Source: a candidate division WOR-3 bacterium (lineage in GTDB: Bacteria; Hydrothermota; Tepidihabitantia; Tepidihabitantales; Tepidihabitantaceae). From it: 39,283 bases of DNA. Below are positions 33,001 to 36,000 of this stretch, piece by piece. Position numbers: made by a program. The DNA is taken from contig CBFGJV010000021.1 of NCBI GenBank assembly GCA_965649205.1, positions 1 to 39,283 of the forward strand, read 5' to 3'. Every line of letters begins with the position of its first letter. The stretch's first letter is position 1.

Positions 33001-36000
33001 TGGGGCATTGTGCATATCTGCGCCAGCGATGTGGCGGTTCTGGGAGTCAGACCACAGTATCTGACTATCAGCCTCCTACTCCCGCCCGGTACTGAGTCCG
33101 CTACCCTCGACCATATCTGGGGACAGGTGCACGAAGAGTGTCAGAAACTGGGCATTGCTGTCGTCGGTGGACATACAGGAGTATATCCCGGCATCGCCTA
33201 TCCCCTGAATGGTGGTTGTACGGTATGGGGAATGGGAACTGAGAAAGAACTGACACCGGCCAGCGCAGCACGGCCGGGCGATTTGTGTCTTATGACCAAA
33301 GGGCCGGCGATTGAAGCCACCGGCATTTTGGCTATCCAGGCGGAACCGGAACTGCGACAGGCCATAGGCCCGGAGTTGACCCAAAAAGGAAAAGACTTTT
33401 TTCTGCAGATGACGGTGGTGAACGATGCGGTGGCGCTGTTCGGGTGTGCGCGGGCAATGCACGATGCCACAGAAGGCGGTCTTCTGAACGGAGTTTACGA
33501 AATCGCCGAGGCTTCGGGCATTGGCGTGCGCGTGTGGGAAAAAGACATTTTCATTCCTGAGGCAGTGGGTGCGGTATGCGACTACTTTGGCATTGACCCG
33601 CTAGTTTCTATCAGCGAGGGAACTCTGGTGGCCGCAGTGCCGCAGGAAAAGAAGGAGGAATGCGAAGCACGCATGCGTGCGGCCGGCATTCCTGCCTGGT
33701 TTATTGGCGAGTTTACGGATTCTGGCCGTATATTCGTGCGCCGGGATGGCACAGAGCAGACATTGCAGCCGGTAAAGGTTGACCCGTTCTGGGCCGCTTA
33801 CTTCCGTTCGCTGCAAGCGGAGAAGAAGGAATGAGCGAGAACTTGGAATCGGCGCGGCAGAGGCTGGAGCAGGCCGTAGCGCTCCTAGAGGCATGTCCGG
33901 AATTTGCCCGGTTAGTGCCGGAAGTGAGGGTCAACATAGTGTATGCACCGGAGGGAACGGACAGCCCTGAACAAGTGCTAGGGGTGGACGGCAGAATCAC
34001 TGTGGTGGGAGGTAAACCCAAGGCTGCAGGGCCGGTGCGGCCCGGGGTTTCCGACCATATGGCCCGGCTGATAATGGAAGCTCGCAGGTATGACCCCCAA
34101 GTGCGTGCGGGCTTGAACTTCCGCTGGAACGAAGCTATTCACGAGTATGTAAAAGGCTATTGTGCCCGACACAATCTTGCGCTTGGCAGCATTGATAGAC
34201 AGGAAGAACCGCAGGAGCTGGTGGGCAGAGATCGGGCGTCTATGCCCTGGAAAGTGAAACGTCTGGTGGAATCATCCCAGGGAAGGTTACCTCCGGTATT
34301 CTATGAATCCCGCGGCTGGGGCAAAGAGCCGCTTTTTGTGCTGGTTGGTCCGGAACCGGTACTGATAGCCGAACGGGCGATAGACATTGCCCGCGGCTTT
34401 GCCTCCAGTCGGCTGTAAGGTCTGAACTTTTCCAGATACAGGTCTTCAGATTCGCACTCGTAGGGCTGGCTAGCCTGCAGGTTGTTATTTCCCTTTTCCA
34501 TTGACGCACAAAGCAGGGCCGGCCTTACTTGCTCCCTCTGCGTTCTGCTTCAGCCGATTACCGACGTAGATGCTGTCAGCCTGAATTTGCGGCGCATTTC
34601 CTCGGCTACCTGCGGAGCTAACGCGGTTCTACTTAGCGGGCCGTGCAGCGGCAGGTCTGGGGGCAGGCTCAGCCGTCCCTGCGCTAAGTCAATTGATAAT
34701 CAGTCCTGCCTGCCATTTGAGTGGGGGAGTCGTTCCCCCCCCTCTGCAGGAGGGGCAAGGTTGGAAGCGGGGAGGGTGAGGGCAACTGTCGGCAATACAG
34801 ACAATTAGAGAATAACTGGAGGAAGAAGGCGGTCTGCGGCATATGTTTCTGGATAATCTGCTTTATCTGGCCATATAACCTTTTGAGAGAGGAGGAGCCC
34901 GAAGTGTGGAGCTGGCTTGTCCGGTCTGCGCAGTCGGCGACAGAAATAATTGCCGGCCGGGAGGTCGGTTCTTGTTCTGCGGGCAGGGGGAGAGGTGTGT
35001 GGTGAAGCGGGACGACCACGGCCCGGATGCTCTTGTTCTGCGGGCAGGGGGAGAGGTGGTATAAGGTGTAGAAGAAGATTGTAAACCGAAGGGAGAAACA
35101 ATGGCAGTAAGTCCGGAGAAGAGAATAAGGCGGTGGGAGAGAAAGTACAATGTGCAGCGGGTGATGGCGGCAGTGGAGGCGCAGCGGGCGCAGATGCTGG
35201 CGCGGTATGAGGCGGCGGTGACAGCGTTGTGTGAGGTGGAGCAGTTGACGCGGGAGATTTTGAACGAGCGGGGCGTGCAGACCATAAATTACATCTGGTA
35301 TTTGAACTACGCGCGGGAGTTATTCAAGTTGACGCGGCGCAGCATTGCGGGTGAGAGTATGGCGGTGGCTGCTGGGGTGCTTCTGGAGAAGTGGCGGGTG
35401 CGGGGACTGGATGCGGAGATTCTGGCAGTTATCCGCAAGCAGGTGTTTAATATCGGGCCCTCCACACCGTAAAACTGTCTCTGGCAGATCGGGTACCGCT
35501 GCCAGCGGGTCAACAGGGCGTTTACGGGTTCGGTCCCTGTCTGATTCAGGCGGGTGCATTTGACAGGTATGCGTTACAGTTTAGTATCAGAGACTGAGGA
35601 CAGCAGTTGTTGAAGGTAACATTGCTCTGTTTTCTGGCAGCACAGGCAGGGGGCTGGCGACTGGTTGGATTGCCCGGGCAGCGCATTCTGGCAGTAGCCG
35701 CCGAAAGTCGCGATTACTGCTATGCGGCTACAGATTCGTCTCTTTACCGTGGAGACAGATTTGGCTGGTATGTACCTATTTTTCGTTACGGTCCGCATGC
35801 GGCTCTGCGAGTTCAGGTAAAAAACAGTTCAGACCTTACCGGTCTTGCCTGGGGATGGGGTTCGCGATCTGACGGGTTGTGGTTGAGCACCAATCAGGGG
35901 CAGGATTGGCAGGTGGGCATATATCTTCTTTACGCGGGTGCACTGGATGTTTGGCAGGAGCAGAGAGTGCGGCGGGGACTGATGGTTGTCGGTAGCGATA

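Follow-up and report, generated by a model that had tools for sequence, protein, structure and literature searches.

A chromosomal gene family of a bacterial order related to adnaviral major capsid proteins: predicted DNA-coating proteins and virus-like elements with the same capsid type

A gene in a 39,283-nucleotide stretch of bacterial DNA (the window) was found to encode a protein that, on the combined evidence of sequence profiles and a modeled structure, is a true relative of the adnaviral major capsid protein (MCP) with a SIRV2-type fold. The gene is a member of a family of adnaviral-type capsid proteins that extends across a whole order; with a probability of roughly one-half, we predict the family to be domesticated and its products to be DNA-coating chromosomal proteins that load on arrays of 12-bp-period DNA. 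Small viruses with a SIRV2-type capsid very probably infect the same bacterial order, a conclusion that is independent of the function of the host protein and in which the virions are putative. The order-wide range of the family, its cassette with an ECF sigma gene, the 12-bp arrays, and the viruses go beyond the survey's finding.

Homology and fold of the window protein

The homology to adnaviral MCPs claimed in the survey's finding was reproduced with two profiles, Foldseek, and VIA-align. Compared with PDB, a profile of 21 bacterial sequences (A1) had adnaviral MCPs as the top 6 of 10 matches at an E value of ≤10 (best, 7.5e-4), and all seven matches at an E value of ≤1 to a profile of 32 bacterial and 3 metagenomic viral sequences (A2) were adnaviral MCPs (best, 1e-6). 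The window sequence alone retrieved no adnaviral MCP from PDB, and the G-alpha matches of that single-sequence search were dismissed as chance matches. Against Pfam, the single sequence matched Sulf_coat_C below the cutoff (E = 0.001), and a word-index protein search, which was too insensitive, returned only three close proteins.

The AF2 model of the window protein (pLDDT 91.1) contained the long N-terminal helix and the C-terminal helical bundle of SIRV2-type MCPs. Adnaviral proteins occupied Foldseek ranks 1 to 8 (probability, 0.97 to 1.00), with E values that were again weak (0.029 to 0.6), as well as VIA-align ranks 1 to 6, with Z scores from 14.5 (rmsd 6.3, 121 aligned) down to 9.6; the first unrelated entry had a Z score of 7.7. 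Residues R8, W12, and K15 aligned with rudiviral R13, W17, and K20, basic and aromatic residues of the DNA-wrapping helix that we take to be DNA contacts in SIRV2. Among 101 chromosomal copies, R8 was conserved in 98, an aromatic residue (W, F, or Y) at position 12 in 99, and K15 in 86. The median pI of 101 family proteins was 9.4.

The window gene and its surroundings

The ORF was confirmed in the sequence as intact (Table 1), and the chromosomal, nonproviral setting that had been proposed for it was upheld by its ThiN and secreted-type neighbors and by a tblastn search of the window genome, in which 13 conserved proteins encoded by the virus-like elements (described below), fiber, holin, and endolysin among them, all went unmatched (E ≤ 0.01). 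The upstream array score was only 0.058. The second downstream protein matched Por_Secre_tail below the cutoff (E = 0.12), and an Rfam scan of nine sources detected nothing but one tRNA.

Table 1. Features in and around the window gene
Feature	Position	Strand	Remark
Thiamine-phosphate synthase ThiN, upstream neighbor	33831..34418	+	Housekeeping; Pfam PF10120, E = 1.7e-45
Promoter-plus-gene unit, ~755 bp, recent duplicate	34704..35459	+	Abrupt loss of similarity at both ends
Candidate -10-like promoter element C(A/G)TATAAC	34872..34879	+	Common to a minority of family genes; putative function
Pair of 28-bp direct repeats, 61 bp apart, in 5' leader	34970..35058	+	Unexplained
Ribosome-binding site	35088..35095	+	Weak beside most paralogues; longest SD match, 4 nt
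Intact ORF for 123-aa SIRV2-fold (adnaviral MCP-like) protein	35101..35472	+	Stand-alone gene; no adjoining sigma gene or strong 12-bp array
Two secreted-type proteins, downstream neighbors	35607..38499	+	Nonviral; second with CARDB-like repeat (label by eye) and weak T9SS-type tail

Within the duplicated unit, positions 34704 to 34879 were 98% identical to C27:1-174, and positions 35319 to 35459 were 97% identical to C2:1-141. From these two contig ends, we infer that the second copy occupies the gap that separates the end of C27 from the start of C2 in the assembly. A viral context hidden at contig ends had been considered earlier, and that concern is answered in part: the recent duplicate accounts for at least one pair of such ends, and viral relatives do exist, with CRISPR matches that point to this bacterial family as a host. 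Inspection by eye showed neither an apparent terminal repeat nor a target duplication at the ends of the unit. The strict C(A/G)TATAAC pattern was present upstream of just 10 of 102 family genes; no single promoter motif for the whole family was found, and the element in the window was not called by a sigma-70 scan. The 28-bp leader repeat was also considered as a CRISPR repeat and rejected, its sequence being unlike both CRISPR repeats seen.

Copies, selection, and gene context across genomes

Searches of the window genome (tblastn and phmmer) recovered the four known full-length paralogues on contigs C12, C13, C17, and C22 (37 to 41% identity), and a broad profile gave the same total of 14 family matches as before. 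The divergent members on C13, C43, C3, C42, and C5 were likewise found, the C5 member having its frame broken by an internal 61-bp duplication. One supposed divergent fragment, C2:2-154, proved to be the window gene in a second, almost identical copy (96% amino acid and 97% nucleotide identity), which is cut by the contig end.

The family was present in 65 of 66 genomes of the order (2 to 68 matches each) and in 45 of 45 high-quality genomes; outside the order, it was found in 0 of 166 sampled genomes. Copy number was highest (17 to 68) in genus g10. Copy numbers that run from 2 to 68 are atypical of a core nucleoid protein; they fit conflict or selfish spread. Syntenic orthologues were kept in low-copy genera, and the chromosomal family is under purifying selection across the order (dN/dS median, 0.20; maximum, 0.42; 160 nonindependent pairs).

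An ECF sigma gene adjoined 33 of 103 family genes, nearly always upstream and on the same strand. SD matches of at least 9 nt preceded 60 of 102 family genes, a count that is biased upward because starts were chosen by SD; a 12-nt extended SD occurred at three sites in the window genome, two of them preceding ORFs, one of which is a family gene and the other S21-like (a label by eye). Most family genes were scattered single-gene units with downstream hairpins, and near-identical recent duplicates adjoined assembly gaps. The family has spread through small duplications of a promoter together with its gene. A transposase as the agent spreading the chromosomal copies was unsupported (three weak matches in 66 genomes).

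Spore SASPs favor A-form DNA. Bulk protection of DNA in dormancy by SASP-like proteins, or filaments that the host makes to package and transfer DNA, might be suggested by these small, basic, scattered, mostly single-gene paralogues with a strong SD and downstream hairpins, by the dedicated ECF sigma gene, and by a fold that wraps A-form DNA. We consider such roles improbable, since no SASP family was matched in Pfam at an E value of ≤1, no homologs of the fiber, holin, and endolysin of the elements were found in the window genome, and the localized 12-bp arrays would be left unexplained.

Virus-like elements with the same capsid type

Virus-like elements of 7 to 11 kb that assembled as circles carried tandem SIRV2-type capsid genes, fiber genes, holin-like genes, and often an M15 endolysin gene (19 of 86 loci, both element types together). 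In type-A elements, tandem SIRV2-type MCP1 and MCP2 genes often adjoined a glycosyltransferase gene, and at least two MCP matches were found in 64 of 66 loci. A viral-only MCP profile of these elements matched 3j9x (E = 4e-8) and 6wq0 (E = 6e-8). Exact 127-nt terminal direct repeats were present in L127, L142, and L146, and a less certain 79-nt terminal repeat lay within a tandem repeat in L126. Adnaviria have a linear double-stranded DNA genome and an archaeal host, whereas type-A elements had terminal direct repeats and circular assembly, as well as M15 endolysins and matching spacers in a bacterial genome. No replication protein was recognized in type-A elements, and no inovirus pI-like ATPase was found among the conserved element gene clusters or 30 scanned proteins (a subset of ORFs); the element MCP fold also differs from the small hydrophobic coat proteins of inovirus-like phages. 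Scans of viral contigs with the narrower alignments A4 and A3 detected no relative, and A1 found two.

One genome of the window's bacterial family (G269) contained a spacer identical to element DNA at 35 of 35 positions and, likewise directed against the elements, three AAG-PAM spacers. These matches point to that family as the likely host. The remaining spacer searches gave no such link: the 35 spacers of the window genome's C43 array (beside the divergent operon) and C20 array had no meaningful match, the best match among all 352 spacers outside G269 had eight mismatches, and no spacer turned up in five other MAGs when their DNA was searched with one element. The genus with matching spacers and integrated islands is g10.

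An integrated island in genome G010 contained a holin-like gene, an MCP pair, and an M15 endolysin gene, of a type related to the 7- to 11-kb elements, and its homolog was joined to housekeeping genes in genome G018. These islands, the existence of DDE-integrase-bearing elements with MCP genes (rve_3, E = 2e-10), the small downstream gene of the elements retained at three other chromosomal copies (5 of 95 anchors in all), and the recent duplicates at assembly gaps could all indicate that the chromosomal copies are selfish mini-elements or proviral debris, remnants or satellites left repeatedly by integrating viruses without benefit to the host. That origin is improbable, being already weakened by the dN/dS values and by the presence of intact ORFs in essentially all genomes of the order; the element integrase had only weak matches in 3 of the 66 order genomes, the 13 element proteins were unmatched in the window genome, and the duplicated unit was without apparent terminal repeats or target duplication (by eye).

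Host and viral MCP genes shared 77 to 88% nucleotide identity over 42 to 69 bp. Host-viral DNA matches, some weak ones of which lay outside the MCP gene, were confined to family f1 (20 of 43 f1 genomes versus 0 of 229 others). This similarity, the viruses that target the host family according to the CRISPR evidence, and the high copy number in the spacer- and island-bearing genus would be compatible with antiviral decoys, in which host capsid-like subunits co-assemble with or coat the viral genome and poison virion assembly or uncoating, some of them under an ECF sigma stress switch. The logic is that of Fv1-type restriction factors, and the altered N-termini and sigma linkage of the divergent paralogues fit inducible chain terminators. 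Decoys are nevertheless unlikely: every pair had a dN/dS of ≤0.42, orthologues are syntenic in low-copy genera, PADLOC 2.0 (library of 2023) matched 0 models among five family proteins, and chromosomal 12-bp arrays, which viral contigs are without, would have no explanation.

A quick IQ-TREE C20 tree nested both virus groups inside family f1, FastTree placed type A near the root, and a single chromosomal clade was not rejected by the AU test (P = 0.078). Because these analyses disagree, no direction of gene flow is claimed. With a cellular family and bacterial elements both at hand, the origin of the capsid, from cell to virus or from virus to cell, becomes testable.

Arrays of 12-bp-period DNA

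Noncoding arrays of 16 to 42 units had an exact period of 12; lags 11 and 13 did not rise above background. Eight were detected in 388 kb of DNA from the order versus none in 734 kb from six genomes outside it, in a comparison among kin that are not independent. Arrays were enriched upstream of family genes: for 11 of 92 genes, one lay no more than 1.5 kb upstream, a count that rose to 19 of 92 when distances of up to 4.5 kb were allowed. The figures for comparison with the 1.5-kb count were 4 of 90 downstream, 18 of 3,000 random tiles of the window genome, and 5 of 298 control tiles. Because 12 of the 14 arrays in the window genome did not adjoin any family gene, the link between arrays and protein is an order-level correlation, and the 12-bp period could serve another factor. 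No comparable array was found in viral contigs, where simple or tandem repeats accounted for the highest scores.

Proposed function

In SFV1, each MCP dimer covers 12 bp (PMC6105669). In the DNA-coating reading that we prefer, family proteins would form dimers that each wrap 12 bp of DNA, as the rudiviral MCP does, and the arrays would serve as phased loading tracks for the dimers. In favor of this reading are the fold and profile homology, the conserved residues of the N-terminal helix, the basic pI, the dN/dS values, the near ubiquity of the family within the order, the 12-bp arrays, the ECF sigma genes, and the extended SD. The resulting short nucleoprotein filaments might organize the DNA around them or silence it, with the family's own promoters and defense loci among the targets and with the divergent paralogues and two-domain fusions of the sigma-linked cassette as possible nucleating or capping subunits. 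The capsid gene may be continually exchanged between the order and its own filamentous-type viruses.

Several observations run against DNA coating. The window gene has neither an array nor a sigma gene of its own, and its SD is weak. Most arrays of its genome stand apart from family genes, with none comparable in viral contigs. The spread of copy numbers and the weak Foldseek E values also count against it.

A more far-reaching proposal is somewhat doubtful and is offered tentatively: the chromatin of the order would consist partly of viral coat protein, dimers standing in register on 12-bp lattices as short virion-like A-DNA filaments that regulate genes, and the Adnaviria lineage would have its first bacterial members in the elements hosted by the order, which would be small, lytic, and circular and would have recaptured their capsid genes from the host family.

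Comparison with known systems

Adnaviral MCPs (SIRV2 3j9x, SSRV1 6wq0, AFV1 5w7g/3fbz/3fbl, and SFV1 6d5f; Pfam PF12193) have the same full-length five-helix fold as the bacterial family and share with it the conserved N-terminal R/W/K helix and profile-level homology. The bacterial genes differ in being dispersed among housekeeping genes in 2 to 68 chromosomal copies, often with an ECF sigma gene, and the window gene, unlike those in adnaviral genomes, adjoins no virion genes. Type-A elements differ from the linear-genome SIRV2-type viruses in their bacterial host, indicated by CRISPR spacers and endolysin, and in their circular assembly.

Two IMG/VR contigs (L079 and L080, at least 24 to 33 kb) encode two MCPs, one of which is 29% identical to the window protein, together with Hjc, a glycosyltransferase, and a large structural protein. 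They resemble the Chiyouvirus-like adnaviruses of Bathyarchaeia and the Demeterviridae/Ahmunviridae, a likeness and not a family assignment; those viruses have archaeal hosts and larger genomes, and fused two-MCP genes are described for them too (PMC10541130; 10.1101/2025.08.23.671958). The new elements differ from them in their size of 7 to 11 kb, in their circular assembly, and in their genes for M15 endolysin and holin-like proteins.

Encapsulins, gene transfer agents, dinoflagellate DVNPs, and Fv1 are domesticated capsid or viral DNA-binding proteins. With the cellular DJR homologs (PMC8812541), they have in common with the family that a virion-type protein is kept as a cellular family, but their folds and lineages differ, and none of these systems is known to involve a helical coat protein that wraps DNA or a 12-bp DNA lattice to match. 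An IME1 preprint and a marine MGE preprint were discarded as precedents, as they concern other capsid types. SASPs and H-NS-type nucleoid proteins are small, basic, multicopy, and DNA coating, and H-NS spreads from nucleation sites; the likeness is an analogy only, with no sequence or fold match seen in Pfam, Foldseek, or VIA-align. If the 12-bp arrays are loading sites, the system would amount to bacterial chromatin of a new kind, and the 123-aa protein with its defined DNA track would offer a simple model of two components in which to study the coating of A-form DNA.

The SIRV2-type capsid defines a virus realm that has been described as restricted to archaea and unconnected to bacterial viruses (PMC10848233). 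A cellular family in bacteria, together with virus-like elements and a CRISPR link, would carry Adnaviria from one domain into another and into metagenomes of sediment and soil.

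Homology to adnaviral capsid proteins

Profiles of the bacterial chromosomal family were compared with the major capsid proteins (MCPs) of the adnaviral (SIRV2) type. With a profile of 21 bacterial members (A1), adnaviral MCP chains took ranks 1 to 6 of the 10 PDB matches at E ≤ 10 (best, 7.5e-4); with a broader profile (A2; 32 bacterial and 3 metagenomic viral rows), all seven matches at E ≤ 1 were adnaviral, including SSRV1 (1e-6) and SIRV2 (3.4e-6). The AF2 model of the window protein (pLDDT, 91.1) retrieved adnaviral MCPs at Foldseek ranks 1 to 8, with weak E values (0.029 to 0.6), and at VIA-align ranks 1 to 6 (Z, 14.5 to 9.6; first unrelated chain, 7.7). 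Across 101 chromosomal copies, R8 was kept in 98, W/F/Y12 in 99, and K15 in 86, and these positions align with rudiviral R13, W17, and K20, which contact DNA in SIRV2. Counted against homology were searches with the window sequence alone, which found no MCP in the PDB and scored below the cutoff against Pfam. The homology claimed in the survey's finding was borne out by the PDB profile matches and the Foldseek and VIA-align ranks, and the family is almost certainly homologous to adnaviral MCPs.

Copies, range, and gene cassettes

The window gene has a weak Shine-Dalgarno site and is flanked by a ThiN gene and two genes for secreted-type proteins. A search of its genome (2.15 Mb, 48 contigs, 98% complete) recovered every locus that the survey had reported for four further full-length paralogues and for divergent members, and the broad profile gave 14 family matches. 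Family copies multiply as small units, and in another genome (G005) three copies that are 94 to 96% identical adjoin scaffold gaps. The identity of the C17 region to three other contig ends suggests further collapsed copies or related units. The frame-broken paralogue on C5 is a candidate pseudogene or assembly artifact.

The host probably belongs to candidate phylum WOR-3. In the bacterial order of this genome, the family was present in 65 of 66 genomes (45/45 of high quality; the sole genome without it is 68% complete). Profile matches, which are not exact copy numbers, ranged from 2 to 68 per genome and from 17 to 68 in genus g10. Elsewhere in the phylum, profile A1 did not find the family in 166 sampled genomes. 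Against a library clustered at 50% identity, there were 1,778 matches at E ≤ 0.001, many of which appear viral. The median dN/dS was 0.20 (maximum, 0.42; 160 nonindependent pairs of ≥72% identity), and the proteins have a median pI of 9.4. A reading of the genes as selfish or proviral remnants appears unlikely, and a role in bulk dormancy protection or packaging is slightly less probable still.

An ECF-type sigma gene lay near 33 of 103 distinct chromosomal genes, many surveyed with flanks of only 1.5 kb, and was nearly always directly upstream, in the same orientation, at a median distance of 319 bp; a small ORF labeled anti-sigma-like by resemblance (no Pfam match) was near 11. The fuller cassette in family f1 of the order comprises up to three divergent paralogues, then the sigma gene, then the canonical gene. 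Many of the genes are preceded by an extended Shine-Dalgarno site and followed by a hairpin; the 12-nt form of the site occurs three times in the window's genome, twice before ORFs (an S21-like gene and the C12 paralogue). The C12 sigma/MCP cassette adjoins cas3/cas8, which possibly belong to the same type I-E system as the C43 array. The CRISPR load of this genome is heavy: Cas1 was matched six times, and arrays of no fewer than four types are present (C1, C20, C22, C31, and C43).

Features of the window, its genome (C numbers, contigs), and other loci (L numbers)
Feature	Location	Description	Basis
Window gene	35101-35472 (+)	Intact ORF, 123-aa product	
Window unit with a second copy	34704-35459	Second copy divided between ends of C27 and C2	Sequence identity
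Direct repeat, window gene leader	34970-35058	28 bp, copies 61 bp apart	
Cassette parts	C12, C13, C43, C5		
Two-domain fusions (two)	C3 and C42		
Internal duplication	C5:103825-103913	61 bp; disrupts frame of divergent paralogue	
Array and promoter region of C17 paralogue	C17:1-343	Matches C16:1-119, C23 end, C36 end	96-100% identity
Type I-E CRISPR array	C43:2925-5152 (L007)	36-37 repeats; trailer end adjoins divergent paralogue operon	
MCP domain (third) fused to YNCE-like beta-propeller	L163:8036-9412	In some type A elements	
Spurious ORFs of 4-residue period	L237:2-778; L279:11469-11852 (G269:C21)	One directly before type I-C cas3	

Virus-like elements with the same capsid

In a scan of the genome collection, tandem MCP genes turned up on five short contigs, whose bin labels included Thiobacillus, Phycisphaerae, and Syntrophaceae. 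When MCP1 of these contigs served as the query, 167 metagenomic loci were retrieved and 80 of them retained. Type A elements (66 loci, some redundant; 59 to 66% GC; at least two MCP genes in 64) share genes for two fiber-like proteins, each with an Ig-like domain at the N terminus, a holin-like ORF, and RHH and zinc-ribbon proteins, often with GT2, Dam, and peptidase M15 (Pfam, 3e-15; PHROG endolysin, 1.5e-28). Across both element types, 19 of the 86 loci have M15. No replication protein was recognized among type A genes. Three contigs circularize (7.0, 7.1, and 8.8 kb), as does a 10.8-kb contig less surely, and a viral-only MCP profile matches SIRV2 at 4e-8. In type B elements, an MCP pair is accompanied by genes for a holin-like protein, M15, and a DDE integrase and by small virion-like genes. 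One such island lies inside a contig of G010 without the integrase, and a homologous island in G018 is joined to housekeeping genes on a contig that ends before the MCP position.

A 1.9-kb type A fragment with RHH and zinc-ribbon genes (L199, G018:C627) was binned in a family f1 genome. Two short contigs (L189 and L190) carry a single MCP gene, a DDE integrase, and an M15 endolysin, and their MCP clusters with f1 chromosomal genes. The beta-propeller fusion is a candidate end-of-filament receptor-binding protein. Two adnavirus-like IMG/VR loci (L079 and L080) encode a 122-aa MCP, an MCP-plus-extension protein of 253 to 263 aa, a glycosyltransferase, Hjc, and a structural protein of >1,200 aa; similarly long MCPs make up about 30 of the best 150 library matches.

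In a quick C20 tree of 50 rows, both virus types were nested within f1 (SH-aLRT, 96 for the viruses plus two g10 genes); in a FastTree phylogeny of 322 rows, they were not. A single chromosomal clade was not rejected (AU test, LG+G4, P = 0.078; 47 rows, with one long-branch row and two duplicates left out).

CRISPR spacers and hosts

Comparison of 393 unique spacers, from the window's genome and examined loci of order genomes, with 83 viral-type loci (412 kb) linked the elements to G269, a genome of the window's family (genus g10; 41 spacers; 6% contamination). One spacer matched MCP1 of one element (four assemblies) at 35 of 35 positions, and the array itself was its only match in G269. The contig of that array carries tsf, rpsB, pyrH, and rplM-like genes (named by eye) that are 56 to 79% identical and syntenic to the window's genome. 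A TTC PAM, the one expected for type I-C, is absent from this match. In a second array of G269, of type I-E, whose cas operon is 42 to 78% identical to that of the window's genome, three consecutive spacers matched RHH/fiber-gene regions (25/32, 28/32, and 27/32), all with the canonical AAG PAM. Shuffled spacers (n = 123) gave seven mismatches three times and never fewer, so the 25/32 match is supported by PAM and position rather than identity; the best match of the 352 other spacers had eight mismatches. In a search confined to the order, the Ig-like domain of the fiber gave weak matches to large proteins in 25 of the 66 genomes. Bin labels and an atlas look-up point to Planctomycetota and others as possible further hosts, labels that possibly stem from misbinning.

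12-bp arrays and proposed function

The window's genome contains 13 to 14 stretches of 12-bp period, nearly all intergenic, of which those on C17 and C43 lie directly upstream of a family gene; the window gene lacks one (score, 0.058; threshold, 0.14). The period is exactly 12, with lags 11 and 13 at background level. For 11 of 92 family genes, an array was found within the 1.5 kb upstream, compared to 4 of 90 downstream, 18 of 3,000 random tiles of this genome, and 5 of 298 tiles taken elsewhere in the order; when the distance is extended to up to 4.5 kb, 19 of the 92 have one. In 388 kb from ten genomes of the order, chosen regardless of the family, there were eight noncoding arrays and no family gene; no array was found in 734 kb from six genomes of the same class outside the order. 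Counted against a link between array and protein were the many arrays (most of the total) without an adjoining family gene, the nonindependence of related genomes and genes in these statistics, and the lack of such arrays in the viral contigs. The spurious ORFs in L237 and L279 likely represent 12-bp arrays. The arrays seem to recur beside defense loci. A role of the proteins as antiviral decoys is a minority possibility, which can be compatible with domestication as DNA-coating subunits.

To the latter reading, the likeliest, we assign a probability of about one half. The host subunits would dimerize, each dimer wrapping 12 bp, and would form short filaments loaded on the arrays, with an architectural or silencing function. 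Capping or nucleation would fall to the divergent paralogues, and induction of the sigma factor would supply subunits. In SFV1, 12 bp are covered per MCP dimer (PMC6105669).

Comparison with known adnaviruses

A full-text literature search, seen as titles and abstract starts and with most subscription journals outside it, returned no report of bacterial adnaviruses or of cellular SIRV2-fold homologues. Contigs with these elements could already be present, unrecognized, in supplementary virus catalogues. In one published account, adnavirians are widespread in archaea and without connection to viruses of bacteria (PMC10848233). The observation of the window gene family is real, and the bacterial setting of this adnaviral-type MCP family is categorically new.
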